A stretch of 64,000 nucleotides of DNA, taken from an uncultured Thermoactinomycetaceae bacterium. GTDB taxonomy: Bacteria; Bacillota; Bacilli; Thermoactinomycetales; CALJVA01. This document shows, in pieces, positions 15,709 through 62,097 of the stretch. The notes below the pieces were generated by a model. That model made no database searches. It saw only the letters and a list, made by a program, of their open reading frames with translations, and was not told the DNA's origin. The position numbers were made by a program, and so were the translations under genes. The stretch lies in assembly GCA_937975135.1 (NCBI GenBank), contig CALJVA010000048.1:12208-76207 (forward strand), read 5' to 3'. Positions within the stretch are counted from its first letter, which is position 1. Each line of letters begins with the position of its first letter.

Positions 15709-16365
15709 ATGAGGATTACAAGGGAGAGAGGAAGAGAATCGGGCCGGTTCCTTTTCTATATCAATGTTTTTGGAACAGTGCTTTTAGGAATTTTTTTTAT
15801 TTACGCTTTAGTTCATGCTCATGATTTGGAGCAGCCAGAGAAAAAAGAAAAGTCGATTTCAAAGGTTGTAAAGGAAAAGAGCGAAGAAGCGAGTAATCTG
15901 GATCGGATCGCCCAAACTCTTGCAAAACAGGGAGCAGTGGTCGACCTTGAGGTTGAAAAGGGGGTGATTCGTTTTCCACAGCGGATTTTGTTTGACTTTG
16001 ATTCTGCGATTCTCTCCAAGGAAGGCAAGGAAATTTTGCAGCAACACCTTCCTCTGTATTTGAGAGTTTTGATGGAAGAGTCTTATTGTGATGAGGTTGC
16101 CGCCTTGGTGATCGAAGGGCATACCGATGATAAGGGCTCTTATGCCTATAATATGAAATTATCGCAAGAGCGGGCTAATGCGGTATTTCAGTATCTCTAC
16201 AGTGAACAATTTCCCCCTTTTGACGGGAAAGGGTGCTCGCAACTCCCCGTGTTGGTACAGGGAGCAGGGCCTAGTATTCCTGTTTATACGGAGGAGAAGT
16301 ATGATGCTGCCCAATCCCGTCGAGTAGAAATTTTGTTTCAGTTGAAAAAGGAAGTGGATGAATGA
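15709..16365 (+). CDS. MotB/OmpA-family protein: single TM helix + peptidoglycan-binding domain (ZorB-like)
   Basis: Basic N-terminus, TM helix FLFYINVFGTVLLGIFFIYALV, and OmpA_C motifs FDFDSA, EGHTDDKGS, NMKLSQERANAV and SRRVEI. Confidence 0.85.
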   Translation: MRITRERGRESGRFLFYINVFGTVLLGIFFIYALVHAHDLEQPEKKEKSISKVVKEKSEEASNLDRIAQTLAKQGAVVDLEVEKGVIRFPQRILFDFDSAILSKEGKEILQQHLPLYLRVLMEESYCDEVAALVIEGHTDDKGSYAYNMKLSQERANAVFQYLYSEQFPPFDGKGCSQLPVLVQGAGPSIPVYTEEKYDAAQSRRVEILFQLKKEVDE

Positions 16366-17621
16366 GGTATGTGTATCACCCAGTCCGGTTGCGTGCTTGG
16401 GTGAGAGAAGAGATAGTTGGGGAGGAGGCTTTGTTCGAGTTTTCATTGCCCCCGCAGTTAGAGCCTTTAAAAGAAGGCTTTGCTCAGGCTCGGGCGCGGG
16501 GTCAGATGGTATTGGACAGATGGGTACGAGGTTTAAGCCGTTTGGAGAAGTGCCTCTTGCCCATTCTGTTTATCTTGGATGAGCGGGAAAAGGGCCGCTT
16601 GGTACTGCGGCCTTATATTTACCGTCAATTGAGAGATTGGCGTACTTTTCCTTTCCTTGTTGGCTTTCTATACCAAAGGGGTGTTTGCTTTCTATACCAG
16701 CAGGATCAAGAACATTGGTACCAATTGATGTGGATGTGGATTCGGAAAGCTTATTTCTATCGCCAAGAAGAGATTGAGAAAAGGATGACGCCACGTCAAG
16801 TAAAAAGGTGGAGAAAGTGGCTTAGTCATCCAATGAACCCGATTAAACACCTCGTTGAAATGGCTCTTAAAGAAGCAAGGTATTTTGATGTCATCGAAGA
16901 GGTAGGCTTAACTTCCGATTACCCTTTTTTCCACCGCGTGTGGAAAGTGACTTTATGTGAGGCACCCCTGGAGTTTTTTAAGCGCGAAAAGAAGCTTTGT
17001 CTAGCCTTGTTTGCTCAAGGAACTTCTTCTTTCCGGGAAAAGATGGTGATACATCTTGTGCAGCGAGAGATCCTTGATGAAGTGCCTGAATTAGGGGATT
17101 TAATCTATGAAATAATGAAGACTTATCGGATGGAACCTCACCTATGGGTAAATATTCCAGAACGTGAGCGGCGGAATTTTCACAATTGGGTGGTACGCCG
17201 AAAGAAAGAGAAGTTCTCTGACTTCTACGATTATTTCCATGAACGTGTCCGGTATTGGCGAAAGTTTATTTACCGAGTACAGAAGGTAGTACCACTATTT
17301 AGGAGAGGAGAAAAAGCATTTTTGCTTTATTTTTCTGATGTTGTTGTGATGGAGCCGATTCAGGGGAAGCAAGCGGGGGCAGCCTATGTATATAGGCACT
17401 CCATTTTCCACAAAGAATTTGGGAAATTAGTAGAGGAGTGGGAGCAGAATAAGAAGATAAGGCTGAAAGATTTTCGTAATTTGGATTTAATTGCAACCGA
17501 GCACAAACTTGATCATCGTAAAAAGGAAGGTATGACTTGGCAAGAATTCTTTGACAAACAACTTTCTACTTGTTTAGGATGGGATGTGTCCGAGGACGAT
17601 GAGAAGGAGGAGCGTGAATGA
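16362..17621 (+). CDS. Uncharacterised 419-aa Trp/Arg/Tyr-rich soluble protein
   Basis: ATGA overlap with both the upstream and downstream genes. No TM segment and an acidic C-terminal tail. No family recognisable by eye. Confidence 0.75.
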   Translation: MRYVYHPVRLRAWVREEIVGEEALFEFSLPPQLEPLKEGFAQARARGQMVLDRWVRGLSRLEKCLLPILFILDEREKGRLVLRPYIYRQLRDWRTFPFLVGFLYQRGVCFLYQQDQEHWYQLMWMWIRKAYFYRQEEIEKRMTPRQVKRWRKWLSHPMNPIKHLVEMALKEARYFDVIEEVGLTSDYPFFHRVWKVTLCEAPLEFFKREKKLCLALFAQGTSSFREKMVIHLVQREILDEVPELGDLIYEIMKTYRMEPHLWVNIPERERRNFHNWVVRRKKEKFSDFYDYFHERVRYWRKFIYRVQKVVPLFRRGEKAFLLYFSDVVVMEPIQGKQAGAAYVYRHSIFHKEFGKLVEEWEQNKKIRLKDFRNLDLIATEHKLDHRKKEGMTWQEFFDKQLSTCLGWDVSEDDEKEERE

Positions 17622-19534: not shown

Positions 19535-20710
19535 ATGCGGGGATTTGAGCATCTGCAGCAGGAGATTGAAAAGTGGAGAGAGGAAGGGGTTTTTCGACCG
19601 TTAACCGAAATTGCTTCGGAACAGGGAAGTAAGGTGGTTATCCGTGGTAAAGAGGTGATCCAGCTTTCCTCTAATAACTATCTCGGATTGACTACCCATC
19701 CGCGCTTGCGGAAAGCGGCGATTGAGGCAGTGGAGAAGTATGGTGCTGGTACAGGCTCGGTTCGGACGATTGCTGGTACTTTTTCGATGCATGAACAGTT
19801 CGAGGAAAAGTTAGCCCAATTTAAGAATACGGAAGCCACTTTGGTGTTTCAGTCCGGTTTTACTACCAATGCTGGGGTGATCGCTTCAATTTTAAGTGAG
19901 GAAGATGTTGTAATCAGTGATGCTTTAAATCACGCCAGTATTATTGATGGGATTCGGCTGACAAAGGCAAAGCGTAGAATTTATCAGCATAATGATATGG
20001 ACGATTTGGAAAAGGCTTTAAAGGAATCTCAAGATGCCCGAACACGTTTGGTAGTAACTGATGGCGTCTTTAGTATGGATGGGGATATTGCTCCCTTGCC
20101 GGATATTGTCGCCTTGTGTGAAAAGTACGATGCTCTGGTAATGGTAGATGATGCCCATTCCAGTGGGGTACTAGGGAAAAATGGTCGAGGTACAATTGAC
20201 CATTTCGGTTTACACGGCCGAGTTCATATTCAAGTGGGAACATTGTCCAAGGCGATTGGTGTATTGGGAGGGTATGTGGCAGGACCCAAGGTGCTGCGTG
20301 ATTATTTGATTCATCGGGCTCGCCCCTTCTTGTTTAGTACTTCTCATCCCCCAGCAGTAACTGCAGCATGCAGTGCGGCAATCGATGTGCTCCAGGAAGA
20401 GCCTGAGCTAATCGAGCGGTTGTGGGATAACACTCGTTTCTTTAAAGAGGGCCTAAAACGTTTAGGCTTTGATACGGGAGAAAGTGAAACACCCATTACT
20501 CCTGTAATTGTAGGAGAAGGAGCTAAGGCAATGGCCTTATCGGATGCCTTGTTTGAAGAAGGGGTATATGCACAGGGAATTGCCTATCCAACCGTCCCCA
20601 AGGATAAGGCCCGTGTCCGGACGATTGTCACAGCAGTACATACACGGGAAGAGCTCAGCTTTGCTCTGGATGCCTTTGAGCGAGCTGGGAAGAGGTTGGG
20701 AATCATTTAA
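19535..20710 (+). CDS. kbl: Glycine C-acetyltransferase (2-amino-3-ketobutyrate CoA ligase)
   Basis: Alpha-oxoamine synthase family ([23 protein letters not shown]-lysine). Immediately follows tdh. Confidence 0.95.
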
Positions 20711-20734
20711 AGCAATTACAATTCGTAATAAAGG

Positions 20735-20770
20735 ACCCGACGTTGTAATACGTCGGGTTGTTTTTATTTT
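20735..20770. terminator. Bidirectional terminator between kbl and the convergent MFS gene
   Basis: ACCCGACGT-tgtaat-ACGTCGGGT followed by TGTTTTTATTTTT. Confidence 0.85.
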
Positions 20771-21960
20771 TGCCATGAACGGACGAATTGGCGAGTCCCT
20801 TGAGCAGAGATGGCTAATATGACACTTGATGCGATAAAGATCCATTGAATCGGAATTACTTCCGCCAACATACTGATAAATAAAATAGACACCCCAAAAA
20901 CAAGGGAGATAAGCGCACTTTGCGCGCTGGTTACTTTGGGTAAATCCTTTGTCGTCGTTTCTTTTTGTATAAACACCTGAAGAATGATCCCTTTCATTTG
21001 ATCAAAACATCCATTCATTGCAAGAAGAAATAAGGCAACAACAGGATACGGGTTTAGTGCAAACCAAAAAGTACTGATCGCCGTTGAAAAAGCGACTGTG
21101 ATGATAAATCTCCCTTGTTTTTTCTCTATCCATTTTCCACCTTTTAGAATTAGCCCGCCTCCTATGATGAGACCAAAAAAATAACTTGAGTTCAAATAGC
21201 CCCACCATGCTTCAGAGACATGGAGAACATCTTGTACAAAAATGTACAATAATGCCGCCACCCAAACGACATTTGCAATTGTATCAAGGGTAAAAATGTA
21301 ATGAATCGTTTTTAAGTGAGGATGATGCCAAATAAGTTGCCAGCCTTCTTTTATTTCTTGAAACCACTCAATCCGCCCTTCTTTTTTCTCAAAGGGGTGG
21401 GGATCAAAAATTTTCCACATTAAGAAGCTTGCCATCATGTATAAAATGACGACGATCCAAAGGATAGAGGAATGTTTCAAATAAGCAACTGCTACTCCAC
21501 CAAGAGTCCATCCTCCAAATTGAACCATCTCAGAGATTGTCGCCATAAAGCTATTCGCTTTTCTTAATTGATGTGTTTCTACCAGTCGCGGTAAAAGGGC
21601 ATACGTTGCAGGAGCTGCCCAACCGTCTAAAAAGGCTATGATACTGATGACGAAAAAAGTAAGGATCAGTGGAACCGAGGAATTAAAGTAAATCTGGAGG
21701 ACGAAGAGAAATAGCCCGCTTGTTTTCCAGAGTTGGGAGTAGAACAAAATCGATCGCAGTGGGTAACGATTGATAAGAGGTGGTGCAAAAAAACCACTTA
21801 AAAATCGTCCCATTGTATTTAAAAACGGCAATAGTCCGACGATAAAGGTTGATTCTGTCGCTGTATATAAAATGGCGACGAGTCCGACAATATAAAGAAC
21901 ATCCCCGAGGTCTGCCAATGCTTGACCATACCATAAATAACGAAATGATTGATTTTGCAT
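20764..21960 (-). CDS. MFS transporter (12-TM, enterobactin-exporter-like subfamily)
   Basis: Hydrophobic 398-aa protein with N-terminus FRYLWYGQALADLGD, typical of MFS_3-type transporters. Confidence 0.8.
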   Translation of the reverse strand: MQNQSFRYLWYGQALADLGDVLYIVGLVAILYTATESTFIVGLLPFLNTMGRFLSGFFAPPLINRYPLRSILFYSQLWKTSGLFLFVLQIYFNSSVPLILTFFVISIIAFLDGWAAPATYALLPRLVETHQLRKANSFMATISEMVQFGGWTLGGVAVAYLKHSSILWIVVILYMMASFLMWKIFDPHPFEKKEGRIEWFQEIKEGWQLIWHHPHLKTIHYIFTLDTIANVVWVAALLYIFVQDVLHVSEAWWGYLNSSYFFGLIIGGGLILKGGKWIEKKQGRFIITVAFSTAISTFWFALNPYPVVALFLLAMNGCFDQMKGIILQVFIQKETTTKDLPKVTSAQSALISLVFGVSILFISMLAEVIPIQWIFIASSVILAISAQGTRQFVRSWQK

Positions 21961-22259
21961 ATAAACTACCTCTTATAATAATTTTTTAATTTGCGAGTAG
22001 AGGTAGTTTAATCACATTGGAAAATACTCCTATTCCTAATAAAAAATGAGAAGTAACTAGCTGTAAACAGATTTATAAGAGGTCGTATCTGCAAAATCAT
22101 TTTTTATATTATATCGTGATTATGCTGTATTGTCTTCCTAATTTAATATAACTACATAACAAGAGTTTCAGTATGCTTGTGGTTTTATGCTTGTTCAATT
22201 ATGGTCCTTTGATACTATTGATATCAATCTATTTTTCATTCTCTCAACGATAACCACAA

Positions 22260-22287
22260 ACACTTATAGAAACAAATTCATAATGTA
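22260..22287 (+). promoter_or_regulatory. Possible sigma-K-type promoter of the poly-Ala gene
   Basis: AC, 17 nt, CATAATGTA fits AC-N16/17-CATANNNTA. Lies 30 nt upstream of the ATG. Short motif, so weak evidence. Confidence 0.3.
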
Positions 22288-22316
22288 ATAGTGATCAAGG
22301 GAAAGGAGGAGAAGAA

Positions 22317-22787
22317 ATGGGTAAAGTTCATTGCAAAAAACGACGACATTGGTGGATGAGAGGAAACAACTCAGGCAGTAGAAATGGAATTGCTACCGCT
22401 GCTGCTGCTGCTGCTGCCGCTGCGGGGCATGCCGCTGCCGCCGCTGCCGCTGCTGCCGCGGGTCGCAATAGTTCCGCTGCCGCTGCTGCTGCTGCTGCGG
22501 GTCGCTCTGCTGCTGCTGCTGCCGCTGCTGCTGCTGGTCCTCATGCCGCTGCCGCCGCCGCCGCTGCCGCCGCTGCTGCTGGCCGTAATGGTGCCGCCGC
22601 TGCTGCTGCTGCCGCTGCTGGTCGTCATGCCGCTGCTGCTGCCGCTGCCGCCGCTGCTTCTGGCAATGGGTCTTCCTCTGCCGCTGCTGCCGCCGCTGCG
22701 GGGCATGCCGCTGCCGCTGCTGCCGCTGCTGCCGCTGCCGGAAGTGCCGCTGCCGCTGCTGCTGCTGCCGCCTCTGCTCGTCGTTAA
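22317..22787 (+). CDS. Poly-alanine block protein (156 aa; basic N-terminus + ten Ala7-12 blocks)
   Basis: RBS AAGGAGG 7 nt upstream of the ATG, hairpin terminator downstream. Ala blocks are separated by GH/GRNSS/GRS/GPH/GRNG/GRH/SGNGSSS/GS linkers. Confidence 0.6.
   Translation: MGKVHCKKRRHWWMRGNNSGSRNGIATAAAAAAAAAGHAAAAAAAAAAGRNSSAAAAAAAAGRSAAAAAAAAAGPHAAAAAAAAAAAAGRNGAAAAAAAAAGRHAAAAAAAAAASGNGSSSAAAAAAAGHAAAAAAAAAAAGSAAAAAAAAASARR
22392..22778 (+). repeat. (GCY)n trinucleotide low-complexity tract
   Basis: About 390 nt composed almost entirely of GCT/GCC (a few GCG) codons. All three + frames and one minus frame stay open over much of the tract. Confidence 0.95.
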
Positions 22788-22802
22788 CGTAAGTGATTTG
22801 GT

Positions 22803-22840
22803 AGATCCTGCTCTTTCTAAGGGCAGGATCTATATAGTTT
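22803..22840 (+). terminator. Hairpin after the poly-Ala gene
   Basis: AGATCCTGC-11 nt-GCAGGATCT followed by ATATAGTTT (weak T-tract). Confidence 0.6.
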
Positions 22841-22989
22841 AAACCAGTTTGTAATGCAAACCTAATACATACATCGACACGCCACTACACTTGCCAGTGA
22901 TGGCCATTGATGGGAGGGTCCATTTACGTTATAATTTTTCTAGATGATGGGGTAATGTGCACGTTTCGATAGAAAGGTGTTGAATATAG

Positions 22990-24465
22990 ATGGACGGCAA
23001 ACAAAATTACAAAGCTCCTTTTGTGCCTCCCAATCTGTTTGAGGCAAAAAGAAGGGGCCGATCAGAGGTTAAGGTACTGCAATTTGAAGATATTCCAGAA
23101 GAAATGAAAAAAATCGGGTACGGCAAACGGTATTTGATTCGCACCTACGGTTGCCAAATGAACGTTCATGATAGTGAGACCATTGCCGGTTTATTAGAAA
23201 CGATGGGCTATAAGCCGACCGAAGAGGAAGAGGAGGCTGATCTGATTCTTCTCAACACCTGTGCGATCCGTGAAAATGCGGAGGATAAGGTGTTTGGAGA
23301 AATTGGCCGATTAAAAACCCTCAAGCTGGAAAATCCAGAGCTAGTATTGGGTGTCTGTGGCTGTATGTCACAAGAAGAGTCAGTGGTTAACCGTATTTTG
23401 CAGCAGCATCAATATGTGGATTTGATTTTTGGTACCCACAACATTCACCGCCTTCCTTACTTGCTACGAGATGCATTGATGAGCAAGGAGATGGTCGTGG
23501 AAGTATGGTCCAAGGAAGGGGATATAGTAGAAAACTTACCCAAGGTACGGCAAGATGGTCTCAAGGCATGGGTCAACATTATGTACGGATGCGATAAATT
23601 CTGCACTTACTGTATTGTGCCCTATACCCGAGGAAAAGAGCGAAGTCGTCGGCCAGAAGAAGTATTGGCTGAAATTCGTGACTTGGCCCGTCGTGGGTAT
23701 CAAGAGGTAACACTACTTGGGCAAAATGTGAATGCCTATGGAAAAGATTTTGTGGACCGAAATTATCGCTTTGCCGATTTGATGGATGATGTACGCAAAA
23801 TCGGGATTCCTCGTGTTCGTTTTACGACCAGTCACCCTCGGGACTTTGACGATCGTCTGATTGAAGTATTAGCTAAGAGGGGCAACTTGGTAGAGCATAT
23901 TCATCTTCCCGTTCAATCGGGTAGCAATCAAATTTTAAAGCGGATGGCTCGCAAATATACTCGGGAAAGTTATCTAGAGTTGGTCCGGAAAATTCGAGAA
24001 GCAATTCCAGATGTAGTATTGACAACAGATATTATTGTGGGCTTTCCCGGGGAAACTGAAGAGCAATTTGAGGAAACGTTGTCCTTAGTGCGAGAAGTAG
24101 AGTATGATTCGGCGTTTACCTTCATTTATTCACCCCGTGAAGGAACACCAGGGGCAAAAATGGAAGATAATGTGTCTGAAGAAGAAAAAAAGGAGCGACT
24201 TCATCGCTTGAACCGCCTGCAGGATGAAATTAGTCTCCGAAAAAATGAAGCCCTGCGGGGAACCGAGGTCGAAGTGTTGGTTGAAGGGGCTAGCAAAAAG
24301 AATCCAGAGGTGCTATCCGGCCGAACACGTACCAATAAGTTGGTTAATTTCCGAGGTCCACAGCATTTGATTGGAAAGTTTGTAAAGGTGCGGATCGATC
24401 AACCCCAAACTTGGACCCTAAACGGTGTCTGGGTAGAGGAACCAAGAGCTGAAGTGGGGAGCTAA
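22990..24465 (+). CDS. miaB: tRNA-2-methylthio-N6-dimethylallyladenosine synthase
   Basis: UPF0004 domain, radical-SAM [11 protein letters not shown] and a TRAM domain. Syntenic with B. subtilis ymcB. Confidence 0.97.
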
Positions 24466-24884: not shown

Positions 24885-24910
24885 CAAATAAAGAAGTAGA
24901 GGAAATAGGC

Positions 24911-24935
24911 CCACGATGATTCGTGGTTTTTTTTT
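24911..24935 (+). terminator. Terminator after ricA
   Basis: CCACGA-tgat-TCGTGG followed by T9. Confidence 0.75.
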
Positions 24936-25002
24936 GTGCACCCTAGACTCCTGCCCTGCATAAATATGTAACTGAATGACTGTTTGGAGGAGGGAACGAC
25001 GA

Positions 25003-25575
25003 ATGGCGAATATAGATAGAGAAGTGCAATACCGCCATATTATTACTAAAGCGGTGTGTGGTAGGGGGCAAAAGTTTTCTCAGGCAACACATACGATTGC
25101 TTCACCTGATAATATTTCCAGTATTTTAGGGGCCTGGGTGATTAATCACAATTATAAAGCGGGTCGAGCGGGGGATCAGGTGGAGATTGTTGGTAGCTAC
25201 GATATTAATATTTGGTTTTCTTATAGTGGAAATACGAAGACGGATGTTGTCAAAGAGACGGTCCGTTATGTGGAGCCTGTTTCCCTCAGTTACCTAGACC
25301 GTAATCTACGAGAGGATACGATGGAAGTAAGTGTATCCTGCACTCAATCTCCACATTGTGTTGAGGCAACCCTTTCAGGAGATGCCGTGTTGGTTCGCGT
25401 AGAGAAAGAGCATGCTGTGGAGATTACAGGAGAGACCAAGATTTGTGTCGCCGTTTATCCTGATTCATATGATGATATGGATGAGAAAGACTTTACAACC
25501 ATGAGCACTGAGGAGAACAGGGAAGATTTTGAGGATTTAGATCCTAATCTGGTGATTGATGATCTGGAAGGATAA
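25003..25575 (+). CDS. cotE: Outer spore coat morphogenetic protein CotE
   Basis: Colinear with B. subtilis CotE (IITKAV, SSILGxWxINH, YDINxWxSY, acidic C-terminus). RBS GGAGGAGGG 6 nt upstream of MANIDRE. Confidence 0.95.
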   Translation: MANIDREVQYRHIITKAVCGRGQKFSQATHTIASPDNISSILGAWVINHNYKAGRAGDQVEIVGSYDINIWFSYSGNTKTDVVKETVRYVEPVSLSYLDRNLREDTMEVSVSCTQSPHCVEATLSGDAVLVRVEKEHAVEITGETKICVAVYPDSYDDMDEKDFTTMSTEENREDFEDLDPNLVIDDLEG

Positions 25576-25600
25576 TGTTTTTCATATTGCTCCCTACTTG

Positions 25601-25623
25601 GAGGCAGAAGCCTCTTTTTTTTT
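25601..25623 (+). terminator. Terminator after cotE
   Basis: GAGGC-agaa-GCCTC followed by T9. Confidence 0.6.
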
Positions 25624-25687
25624 ACTAACGTTACCCGTTCATACCTCATAACATATGATCAGGAAGAGGAAAGGGGGAAGGCCACTT

Positions 25688-27052
25688 ATGGGTTCCCTCG
25701 TAATTGCCAGTGATCAATTGGATGCGTCCTCCCTTGATCATCTCTTGCTTTCTAAAGAGAACTTCCCTGCATCCTTAAAGCTTGACATACCTCATTTGGG
25801 TTATACCGAGTCATTATTTCTACTAAATGATGCGGATCTTGTAGAGCAATATCGCAGCAAAGAATCGCGAATGGATACCTTATCCTTGCACAATGTCCGT
25901 GTTTCATCTGCAACTTCTTCGATTGTCCGACAGTATGTGGTTGTGGTATTTCAAACAGAGGTACTCCTTACTTACCGGACGAAAAATCATGGGGTTGGCT
26001 TGGCAGGTCGCAAACAAGAGCGTTTTTATCGGGTTTCTCCTAAGGATCAAAGTAGGGAAGTCCGAAGGATTCATACATTGGCGATCCGTTCTCTTTATGC
26101 TTTGGGTTTGGATTATGGAGTCGTCAAAGCGGCGGTATTACAGGGAAATCGGACTGCGGTGTTGGACGTGATTCTTAGTCCGCGACTCAATATGGAAATC
26201 GGACGGCATCTCGCTGGGGCAGTGATTAAGTATGGTAAGTCATTGCCTCAGCTGGCTGTTTCTCTGAAAAAGGTAATGCTTGGGGCAGATCCGGAATTTA
26301 TTATGGAGTCGTTAAAGGGGGAGATTATACTTGCTTCCGAGTATTTTCCCCGGTTTGGATCTGTAGGATGTGACGCGATTTGGCAAGGGCGGAACCGTTC
26401 CCATAAACCGGTAGTTGAGATCCGGCCTAAGCCAACCAATCAGCCACGTGAGCTGGTGGTTCGTATGTATCAAGGGATGCAGAAGGCCAATCAGAAAGTA
26501 AAGCACCTTTCTTTACGTTGGTTGGCAGGTGGGCTTCCACATGCAGGCTTTCCATTGGGAGGACATATCCATTTTAGTGGGATCCATCTTAACTTTAAAC
26601 TGCTCCGTGCCTTAGATAACTATTTGGCATTGCCATTGGTATTGGCAGAGGATCCTCGTGGAAAAAAGCGGCGCCCGAAATACGGTTTTTTAGGTGATTT
26701 TCGCCGTCAGTTCCATGGTGGGTTTGAATATCGGACTCTTCCCAGTTGGTTGGTTTCACCAACTTTAACCAAGGGAGTTATCGCTGCCGCTCAGGTAATT
26801 GCAGCGCAATATCCGTACTTGCGTTACAATCCGCTAAAAGATTCTTCAATCCAGACAGCCTATTATCAAGGATCTAAAGAGAAGTTGAAAAAAATTGTTC
26901 CTATTTTGTGGAGGGACCTGACTCGCCTGTCCGAGTACAAGGAATACCAAACTTACCTAGATGGTTTTTTTTCTCTGCTTCTTTCAGGAACTACCTGGAA
27001 CGAACGGGTTGATTTTCGCAGGCGATGGAAACTGGCTCCATACAATCGGTGA
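25688..27052 (+). CDS. Putative amidoligase: ATP-grasp-like N-terminal region + phiEco32-like COOH-NH2 ligase-like domain
   Basis: C-terminal half has LGADPEF..., GGHIHFSG and FEYRTLPSW (amidoligase-like). N-terminal half resembles the C-terminal part of RimK-type ATP-grasp (ALGLDYGVV...VLDV). Start at MGSLVI after RBS AAGGGGGAAGG. Confidence 0.6.
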   Translation: MGSLVIASDQLDASSLDHLLLSKENFPASLKLDIPHLGYTESLFLLNDADLVEQYRSKESRMDTLSLHNVRVSSATSSIVRQYVVVVFQTEVLLTYRTKNHGVGLAGRKQERFYRVSPKDQSREVRRIHTLAIRSLYALGLDYGVVKAAVLQGNRTAVLDVILSPRLNMEIGRHLAGAVIKYGKSLPQLAVSLKKVMLGADPEFIMESLKGEIILASEYFPRFGSVGCDAIWQGRNRSHKPVVEIRPKPTNQPRELVVRMYQGMQKANQKVKHLSLRWLAGGLPHAGFPLGGHIHFSGIHLNFKLLRALDNYLALPLVLAEDPRGKKRRPKYGFLGDFRRQFHGGFEYRTLPSWLVSPTLTKGVIAAAQVIAAQYPYLRYNPLKDSSIQTAYYQGSKEKLKKIVPILWRDLTRLSEYKEYQTYLDGFFSLLLSGTTWNERVDFRRRWKLAPYNR

Positions 27053-60952: not shown

Positions 60953-61381
60953 TTAATAAGCATCGTAATTTACTTTTTTGAGTCCAAATTGAATTGCATG
61001 TTGGTCTGCTACGGTCCCCTTAAGTCCAAAGTAAATGTCAAACCACTGCCTTGTGAGTCCCTGCCGGCAATAAACATCACCCATATCTTCCACTCGAAAT
61101 GTTTGCCGTTCCCCATATCCAGGAAGATAAAGAGCCGTATCGGTGTGAATAATCGTTCCAAAGGGGAACAAGGTTCCTGAAGTAGGAGAGCCACATGATT
61201 GGGGATGAACCGCAACTGTATAATAACTTGAGGGATAAGTACCGTGGTACGTCCGGGCACCCGATCCTGCAGTATAAGCGGTTACATCTTGATTATTATA
61301 TTGGGCCGCATTTACCACTACTGGAGAAAGAAAAATCAAGACAAAACTGATCAGAAAACAGCAAAAACCCCTTCTGATCAT
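60953..61381 (-). CDS. Secreted 3D-domain/DPBB-fold protein
   Basis: Signal peptide (…VVVNA/AQ), TAYTAG and the FRVEDMGD...FDIYF pattern, as in 3D (MltA-like) domains. Confidence 0.7.
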   Translation of the reverse strand: MIRRGFCCFLISFVLIFLSPVVVNAAQYNNQDVTAYTAGSGARTYHGTYPSSYYTVAVHPQSCGSPTSGTLFPFGTIIHTDTALYLPGYGERQTFRVEDMGDVYCRQGLTRQWFDIYFGLKGTVADQHAIQFGLKKVNYDAY

Positions 61382-61397
61382 GAATGAAATTCTCCTC

Positions 61398-61961
61398 TCA
61401 TTCAGTGATACTCATTCCCAGATAACTGCCATCTTGAGGATCAAAAAAGATCTTTGTATATTGTTCTTTCTCGTTTAGCCCAACAACTGCGGCAAAAAGC
61501 ACATTTTCACTTTTAAATAGAACAAAGTGATACCCCTCTGCCCACGTAACACCTGGTAATAGATGATACTTATCTCTTGCCCTTTTTACCAATTGAGGAG
61601 AATCAACAATAATCTCGTGAACTTGAACTCCTTCTGCTGCTCGATATACGTCTATGGTCTCCTTCAGTTGCACCTGTCCATCCCGGATCGTTAGAATCAG
61701 GGAGCGGTCTTTTTCTGGCACGGCAAAGATTAAATTCCAAAACCTTCTTCGCCCGTTATTCCCCTTTCCTTCCTCTTCATATTCATCGTCTACACTGGAA
61801 GCTGAGATGAGAACCGCTTCTGGATCCCAGGCTGCTGCATGACGCCACCCTAAATTGACTGCTTCTTTTAAGGATAGCTGACTTGAACCATAGGGAGAGC
61901 TCTGTCCCAGGATAATTAGAAGCAAAAAAGATCCACCCCATCCCATCCATTTTTTGATCAC
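61398..61961 (-). CDS. Secreted protein of unknown function (PepSY-like repeats possible)
   Basis: N-terminal signal/anchor helix. GTG start after GGGGGATG. Lies 16 nt upstream of the 3D-domain gene (same operon). Confidence 0.7.
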   Translation of the reverse strand: MIKKWMGWGGSFLLLIILGQSSPYGSSQLSLKEAVNLGWRHAAAWDPEAVLISASSVDDEYEEEGKGNNGRRRFWNLIFAVPEKDRSLILTIRDGQVQLKETIDVYRAAEGVQVHEIIVDSPQLVKRARDKYHLLPGVTWAEGYHFVLFKSENVLFAAVVGLNEKEQYTKIFFDPQDGSYLGMSITE

Positions 61962-62097
61962 AAAGGAGCATCCCCCTAAGCACTTTCACTCCCCCTATAA
62001 ACTATGCAGTCAATTTTACTTTGTGAAAGGAAAAAGGGTATAATAATTGAAGCGGTTTTTCCTTTTTAAAGGAGTTCGCATTGATTTTCCAATGAAA

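Follow-up and report, generated by a model that had tools for sequence, protein, structure and literature searches.

In a 64,000-nucleotide stretch of contig CALJVA010000048.1 (assembly GCA_937975135.1) from an uncultured Thermoactinomycetaceae bacterium, which we refer to in its entirety as the window, an open reading frame (ORF) upstream of miaB encodes a protein of ten alanine blocks on a (GCY)n triplet tract. We think it probable that this poly-Ala frame is translated, and the reading that we favour, tentatively, is that of a self-associating structural protein of the spore surface that would be made late in the mother cell and whose number of blocks would drift by recombination. The evidence consists of a canonical Shine-Dalgarno sequence, the pattern of codon variation inside the alanine blocks, a sigma-K-type promoter motif of a class conserved in the family and an ORF that remains intact across several length alleles within the species (Table 1).

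The poly-Ala frame and its length alleles

A preliminary description of the locus, made from its letters alone, had reported AAGGAGG 7 nt before the ATG at 22317 and a 156-residue protein with 96 alanines (61%), ten Ala blocks of 7 to 12 residues and a SARR end, all of which we reproduced exactly. The translation starts with MGKVHCKKRRHWWMRGNN, the blocks measure 9, 10, 8, 9, 12, 9, 10, 7, 11 and 9 residues in order, and the linkers between them read GH, GRNSS, GRS, GPH, GRNG, GRH, SGNGSSS, GH and GS. Ahead of the blocks lies a basic head of 25 non-repeat codons (MGKVHCKKRRHWWMRGNNSGSRNGI) with seven positive charges, one Cys and two Trp, in which RRHWW follows the pattern RR-x-hydrophobic-hydrophobic and is itself followed by IATAAAAAAAAA. 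Tandem Repeats Finder resolves the tract behind it with a period of 3 and with a period of 39 in 9.6 copies. The predicted product has a mass of 13.3 kDa, an isoelectric point of about 12, a net charge of +13, no Asp or Glu and a grand average of hydropathy (GRAVY) of +0.46; its three Lys are all N-terminal, and it has six His and one Thr as well as many AxA sites. Gly occupies 15 positions, mainly as the first residue of a linker, and Arg is present in many linkers, with predicted tryptic peptides that include NSSAAAAAAAAGR, NGAAAAAAAAAGR and SAAAAAAAAAGPHAAAAAAAAAAAAGR. The remaining AAGGAGG sites within the window stand before genuine gene starts.

The contrast in GC content between this region and its AT-rich flanks, also pointed out earlier, is pronounced: the tract reaches 74% against a window mean of 44.4% (300-nt windows, standard deviation 0.040, maximum elsewhere 0.56), and the lowest-GC 300 nt of the whole window (27%) lie directly upstream of the poly-Ala gene. 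Elsewhere in the window there is no second Ala-rich open frame, and across 1.45 Mb of other fetched Bacillales loci the sole Ala-rich frame, on one high-GC contig, barely passed a looser threshold. The hairpin proposed after the stop codon was likewise confirmed, with 15 pairs, a centroid energy of -19.8 kcal/mol and z = -3.7 against shuffles.

By exact-protein look-ups of the MFS, MiaB and RicA sequences, we found the locus in at least a dozen public assemblies of the same species, including a 1.08-Mb ENA contig; the RicA look-ups returned no more divergent strains. Sequencing runs that contain the species include SRR31337344/45/50/51, SRR22013515-17, SRR29262142, SRR35904793, SRR16945613 and SRR33723977/83, as do the reads behind ERZ25039577. 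The window and at least seven other samples together give eight different full-length sequences; the ORF is intact in every one of them (8/8), and they represent five in-frame alleles of 51, 156 (two arrangements, one of them that of the window), 167 and 168 amino acids. Across these alleles the first 27 residues and the C-terminal SARR are identical at the protein level, and neither the promoter motif nor the Shine-Dalgarno sequence nor the hairpin varies. In a DNA alignment, the alleles differ from the 167-residue form by a gain of 3 nt, by losses of 33 nt at two different places and by a loss of 348 nt, with all three deletions falling between short direct repeats. The derived alleles contain private junction 31-mers (78 in the window and 14, 13 and 12 at loci L081, L084 and L090, respectively) and the longest internal exact repeat in any allele is 26 nt or less; therefore, the length variation, which the preliminary description had anticipated, is real, and on these k-mer grounds we take the alleles to be read-supported variants, not k=31 assembly-graph collapses. 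Separately, six same-species short-read contigs (L085, L086 and L179 to L182) end within the tract, suggesting either mixed alleles within samples or loss of coverage over its 74% GC.

Reading frame and promoter motif

Since stop codons hardly fit into a GCY repeat, four of the six frames read through the tract without interruption; the minus-strand GCR frame, which would likewise give poly-alanine, has two internal stops. The plus-strand Ala frame proposed earlier is alone in combining an ATG with a canonical Shine-Dalgarno sequence before it and 25 in-phase non-repeat codons, and in silico it is the supported choice. The Leu/Pro-rich plus-strand frame (22384-22842) and the Ser/Gly-rich minus-strand frame (22706-22371), expression of either of which would be the alternative, are both open across the tract, but the first ATG of each lacks a preceding Shine-Dalgarno sequence, the observed T/C variation would replace Leu/Pro or Ser/Gly residues, and the minus-strand frame has no promoter-like site inside the tract. 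We consider expression of either one barely credible.

Inside the Ala blocks, variation is confined to codon position 3, where at least 10 different T/C patterns occur. Codons for Val and Thr are the products of C-to-T transitions at position 2 and of G-to-A transitions at position 1, respectively, and these would be expected at least as frequently as changes at position 3; the ORF has no Val codon, and its one Thr codon borders the first Ala block. By our estimate, ten independent events would all fall on position 3 with a chance of at most about 2e-5. Likewise, Gly in the linkers is kept via GGG, GGT, GGC and GGA and Arg via CGC and CGT; the linkers begin with Gly and continue with His, Arg, Asn or Ser, lack Asp, Glu and Val, contain one Thr and, judged by this composition, differ from random decay products of GCT.

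These patterns bear directly on an explanation without any gene, in which the tract is a GC-rich triplet or 39-nt intergenic minisatellite and the ORF an annotation artefact. Such a repeat is free of stops in most frames, register-preserving slippage yields in-frame indels in it automatically, and no homologue, family or structure match was found for the encoded protein (see below). We nevertheless regard this explanation as unlikely, given the ideal spacing between AAGGAGG and ATG, the non-repeat codons in phase with the Ala frame, the lack of Thr and Val transition products inside the blocks despite abundant T/C variation at position 3, and the bracketing of the ORF by a promoter-like motif and a 3' hairpin.

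The consensus of Bacillus sigma-K promoters is AC, 16-17 nt, CATAnnnTA, and a match to it upstream of the poly-Ala gene had been noted before. The match is present, with AC at 22260-61, N17 and then CATAATGTA at 22279-87, and its -10 element stops 30 nt before the ATG; a promoter scan found no sigma-70-like site facing the poly-Ala ORF. For a positional test, we took the 218 sites in the window that combine a Shine-Dalgarno sequence and a start codon with an ORF of at least 50 amino acids, searched 15-60 nt upstream of them for the motif and compared the result with composition-preserving shuffles. The motif stands in promoter position at three of these sites (22317, 25688 and, on the minus strand, 61961) versus 0.28 +/- 0.5 expected, and none of 500 shuffles gave three. 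Site 25688 belongs to a PF14395 COOH-NH2 ligase gene directly after the cotE terminator, and the orthologues of this gene in Paludifilum, Salinithrix and Laceyella (45-53% identity) keep CTAAC-N17-CATAnnATA with diverged spacers and as the sole plus-strand match in each 9.4-kb locus. At the level of sequence, conservation of the motif in four genera shows that it marks a real promoter class of this family, and this footprint makes the copy of the poly-Ala gene more credible; together with the enrichment in promoter position, it strengthens the sigma-K assignment made before. The match would fit sigma-K or a related mother-cell sigma factor alike and cannot separate the two. If the ORF is translated, we see late mother-cell timing as an evenly balanced proposition.

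Two observations were made around the other motif copies. The PF14395 gene (phiEco32-like COOH-NH2 ligase, 25628-27052), with its motif ca. 33 nt before the start and counterparts from 6638 in L001, 6625 in L002 and 6640 in L004, suggests itself as an unrecognised conserved late-sporulation gene of Thermoactinomycetaceae beside cotE. The third motif, ACAAAGTAAAATTGACTGCATAGTTTA (62024-61998, minus strand), lies 37 nt before a 187-codon ORF (61961-61398) that is followed on the same strand by a 142-codon ORF (61381-60953). Both ORFs of this region (60953-62024) encode hydrophobic N-termini, no Pfam or NCBIfam family was found for either, and they are possibly further spore-envelope genes.

A candidate spore-surface protein

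In the reading that we favour, a GCY triplet tract expanded in units of 33-39 nt and would now be under a late mother-cell promoter of the sigma-K type, with translation directed by the canonical Shine-Dalgarno sequence. In the product, the 25-residue basic head would be followed by some ten runs of 7-12 alanines, each ended by Gly plus His, Arg, Asn or Ser. Such a chain offers space neither for a fold nor for an active site; it would lack catalytic potential and would act by self-association of its Ala runs. Runs of 7-12 alanines are helical on their own and, when highly concentrated or dried, associate into sheets, as known from silk and poly-Ala peptides; helices are terminated by Gly and N-capped by Ser, Asn and Thr. 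In the poly-Ala protein, the runs would be helical when isolated and would pack or turn to sheet if concentrated or dehydrated, the 13 positive charges and six His residues would favour attachment to anionic spore layers, and the single Cys could cross-link. The protein would be laid down late on the developing spore as a structural or filler part of its outer layers, and recombination between short direct repeats would add or remove blocks, making the protein differ in length by strain. Basic or repeat-built, low-complexity, lineage-specific proteins under sigma-K control are typical of the outer coat or exosporium of Bacillales (CotG, CotB and BclA), and by this analogy we lean towards a structural spore role, provided that the gene is indeed expressed late in the mother cell.

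Compared with what is generally known of such proteins, the poly-Ala protein lies, by its sequence, outside the BclA, CotG, spidroin and type I antifreeze families and is a candidate repeat-built, fast-evolving spore-surface protein. With sigma-K-dependent coat and surface genes it shares, in silico, the AC-N17-CATAATGTA motif at promoter distance. Like BclA, the collagen-like exosporium protein of the Bacillus cereus group, it has a short non-repeat N-terminal head followed by a triplet-coded low-complexity repeat whose copy number varies in frame between strains, and the late sigma-K-driven transcription and structural surface role of BclA are predicted for it by analogy. Unlike BclA, it has no GXY (GPT) repeats but poly-alanine with linkers of 2-7 residues, it ends in SARR directly after the last Ala block instead of in a C1q/TNF-like domain, and no sequence similarity between the two was found. 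CotG-like outer-coat proteins are similarly small, strongly basic, built of tandem repeats and poorly conserved across species; CotG is sigma-K-dependent, whereas for the poly-Ala gene only a sigma-K-type motif was read. The repeats of CotG, however, are rich in Lys, Ser and Arg, whereas Lys is confined to the N-terminus of the Ala-dominated protein, and CotG is a substrate of the kinase CotH, whose gene lies divergent to its own, whereas the divergent neighbour of the poly-Ala gene is an MFS transporter gene.

The resemblance to silks that had been remarked on earlier lies in the alternation of Ala runs (ca. 5-13 residues in MaSp1 and Antheraea fibroin) with Gly-containing spacers, a motif that forms beta-sheet nanocrystals in silk. 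AlphaFold2 gave a low-confidence single-sequence model of three long helices with breaks at GPH and SGNGSSS, which reflects no more than the helix propensity of alanine. Silk spacers are long and Gly-rich, not short and cationic as here, and silks measure hundreds of kDa and carry dedicated N- and C-terminal domains, whereas Pfam detects no spidroin domain in the 13-kDa poly-Ala protein. We treat as quite improbable that it is the first bacterial "silk-type" material protein, which would pass from helices to beta-sheet crystallites and cover the endospore (or aerial hypha) of a member of the Thermoactinomycetaceae with a layer both hydrophobic and mechanically tough, its block number tuned by strain through repeat recombination. 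Type I fish antifreeze proteins have a comparable Ala content of about 60%, predicted helicity and GCT/GCC-rich genes, but the poly-Ala protein lacks their 11-residue Thr periodicity (having one Thr), is built of units of 11-15 residues with Gly breakers and has no match in PDB, and ice binding is not a plausible function in such a lineage.

Export to the hyphal or cell surface would be another way to interpret the protein, with a signal resembling those of Sec or Tat substrates made up of KKRRHWW and the first Ala stretch, and with the Ala-block chain forming a hydrophobin- or chaplin-like coat on the cell or aerial hypha. The positively charged N-terminus with RRHWW and IATAAAAAAAAA, the many AxA sites and the positive GRAVY value are compatible with this idea, and Thermoactinomycetaceae do form aerial hyphae. 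Inspection by eye, however, finds behind the basic n-region only poly-alanine as a candidate h-region, separated from RRHWWM by 11 residues of which 10 are polar, an arrangement atypical for Sec or Tat substrates. Poly-alanine is at or below the hydrophobicity threshold for signal recognition, and the promoter motif is of the sporulation and not of a vegetative type. Export is improbable in our view.

Searches for homologues identify the gene, as far as sequence comparison reaches, as an orphan restricted to one Thermoactinomycetaceae species. A full-length search of 5.8 billion proteins yielded no homologue among the 8000 candidates listed, which were filled by poly-Ala words. With an artificial compressed query, kept free of AAAAA words by shortening every Ala block to two residues, 409 candidates came up, none of them at E <= 10, and exhaustive phmmer against 1.84 billion protein representatives gave 0 matches. 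Pfam and NCBIfam contain no family for the protein, PDB no match beyond tau noise, and the protein sequences of the alleles were not found in the protein collection. Similar Ala-block ORFs next to miaB in relatives, which the preliminary description had proposed to look for, were not found either: in miaB-anchored scans of genome and metagenome collections (160 loci among the matches listed, best identity 83%, so that congeners may be missed), 0 of 160 loci had an Ala-rich open frame or an HWW/KKRRH motif in a plausible frame. Literature searches on poly-Ala or Ala-rich spore proteins, on coat proteins of Thermoactinomycetaceae and for the accessions of the sequencing runs brought up nothing relevant.

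Several findings weigh against a spore-surface protein under selection. Because no homologue was found by the full-length, compressed-query or phmmer search, coding constraint cannot be assessed by comparison between species. The 96 Ala codons (GCT 58, GCC 34, GCG 4) include no GCA, although it encodes 29% of the alanines in 33 genes of the window; therefore, the tract would be young or continuously homogenised instead of having been under long selection. The intact frame of all alleles is weak evidence, since recombination in a triplet-periodic tract keeps the register and makes indels multiples of 3 by construction, and we rejected it as proof of selection. Moreover, the 51-residue allele drops eight of the ten blocks, therefore length would be weakly constrained, and of the four single-nucleotide polymorphisms of the ORF within the species two are synonymous (GGC/GGT and GCT/GCC) and two, both in one linker of the window allele, are non-synonymous (A to S and P to H). 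The promoter motif is short and unenriched across the window (four observed versus ca. six in shuffles), so this window-wide count was discarded in favour of the positional test as the informative one; the fourth match, AC-N16-CATAnnnTA at 1513-1539 and 90 nt upstream of recA, is probably a chance occurrence that illustrates the limited specificity of the motif alone. The hairpin behind the ORF lacks the long U runs of the ricA and cotE terminators (24900-24932 and 25598-25623), was not called by the terminator scan and may terminate weakly, stabilise the end of the RNA or be left over from the insertion. The AlphaFold2 model is of low confidence (predicted local distance difference test score of 61). 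Finally, the location in a "sporulation neighbourhood" adduced earlier is correct in that cotE (24976-25575) lies 2.2 kb downstream, but this does not sustain the argument built on it: the order miaB-ricA-cotE-mutS-mutL belongs to the ancestral synteny of Bacillales and the poly-Ala gene sits in a lineage-specific insertion, which is why adjacency to cotE is uninformative on this gene and was rejected as evidence of a coat role.

Much of this would also be expected of a translated but functionless or near-neutral young orphan, in which a GCY repeat within a recent insertion expanded behind a promoter and Shine-Dalgarno sequence that were present by chance or borrowed. Restriction to one species and to a lineage-specific segment, codon usage off the genomic equilibrium, a natural allele without most of the tract and the amino acid changes in a linker of the window allele all agree with such an origin. 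On the other side, the canonical Shine-Dalgarno sequence and the confinement of variation to codon position 3 suggest constraint on Ala coding, the linkers are non-random in favouring Gly plus basic or polar residues, and the promoter motif is of a class that is conserved and enriched in the family. A functionless orphan appears rather unlikely to us. If the spore-surface protein that we favour is expressed as proposed, it would add poly-Ala blocks as a new composition class to the fast-evolving, repeat-built proteins that lend spores of different species distinct surfaces, and it would provide a compact, naturally length-variable model of Ala-run assembly. A gene assembled from a triplet repeat in a recent insertion, with recognisable promoter and ribosome-binding site, would moreover be useful for studying bacterial gene birth. 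If unexpressed, the locus would be a harmless minisatellite and would caution us that ORFs in triplet repeats can look convincing.

The inserted segment and its neighbours

Pfam assignments give the gene order recA-recX ... rny-ymdB ... tdh-kbl-[MFS, poly-Ala]-miaB-ricA(ymcA)-cotE-(PF14395 ligase)-mutS-mutL-...-miaA-...-AAA ATPase-hflX, which from recA to hflX is a conserved Bacillales chromosomal block. Among the matches listed, the closest MiaB proteins are those of Paludifilum (83%), Salinithrix (80%) and Laceyella (80%). In Paludifilum and Salinithrix kbl abuts miaB, with an ORF map of tdh-kbl-miaB in the Paludifilum locus L001, and blastn of our sequence against L001 and L002 aligns only 20663-20715 (3' end of kbl) and 22966-22992 (ribosome-binding site of miaB); therefore, the ca. 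2.25 kb in between are lineage-specific. The closest homologues of the MFS protein outside the species are only 45-48% identical and belong to halophilic Bacillaceae (48% for Virgibacillus and Halobacillus), which suggests a horizontal origin of the segment with this gene. No poly-Ala ORF was found near three of these MFS homologues, and their contexts are unrelated.

Table 1. Features in and around the poly-Ala gene (window coordinates)
Feature	Coordinates	Strand	Remarks
Lineage-specific stretch, ~2.25 kb	20716..22965		Contains MFS gene, AT-rich region, poly-Ala gene, hairpin and miaB promoter-like site; borders approximate
MFS (MFS_1/MFS_3) transporter gene	20764..21960	-	Pfam; divergent to poly-Ala gene
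Divergent intergenic region, 356 nt, 28% GC	21961..22316		Two sigma-70-like sites, both on the minus strand toward the MFS gene
Sigma-K-type promoter-like motif (AC, N17, CATAATGTA)	22260..22287	+	Motif scan and shuffles; invariant in all alleles
Shine-Dalgarno sequence AAGGAGG	22303-22309	+	7-nt spacer, ATG at 22317
Poly-Ala ORF	22317..22787	+	156 amino acids; frame called as gene in all other assemblies
Basic N-terminal region, non-repeat	22317..22391	+	25 codons; protein-identical across alleles
(GCY)n tract	22398..22777	+	Units of ~33-39 nt; ten Ala blocks with Gly-led linkers
Hairpin, 15 bp, no U tail	22801..22833	+	14 nt past stop codon
Sigma-70-like site (TTGATG, 17 nt, TATAAT)	22907..22935	+	Between hairpin and miaB
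miaB (UPF0004 / Radical_SAM / TRAM)	22990..24465	+	Anchor for comparing relatives

Downstream of the poly-Ala ORF, the sigma-70-like site between hairpin and miaB indicates that miaB probably has its own promoter. This site bears on the idea that the ORF is a leader that regulates miaB by coupling translation of its Ala codons to read-through of the hairpin. Such a role would fit the position of the ORF, which shares its strand with miaB and lies 202 nt ahead of it, and a hairpin that, without a U tail, might be read through. With 156 codons, however, the ORF is far above the size of known leader peptides, relatives regulate miaB without it, Rfam has no element anywhere in the window and, to our knowledge, nothing connects Ala codons logically with the ms2i6A modification; we give the leader next to no credence. 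Further upstream in the window, a 419-codon ORF (16362-17621), for which neither Pfam nor NCBIfam gave a match, is overlapped at its start by an OmpA-family gene (15709-16365).

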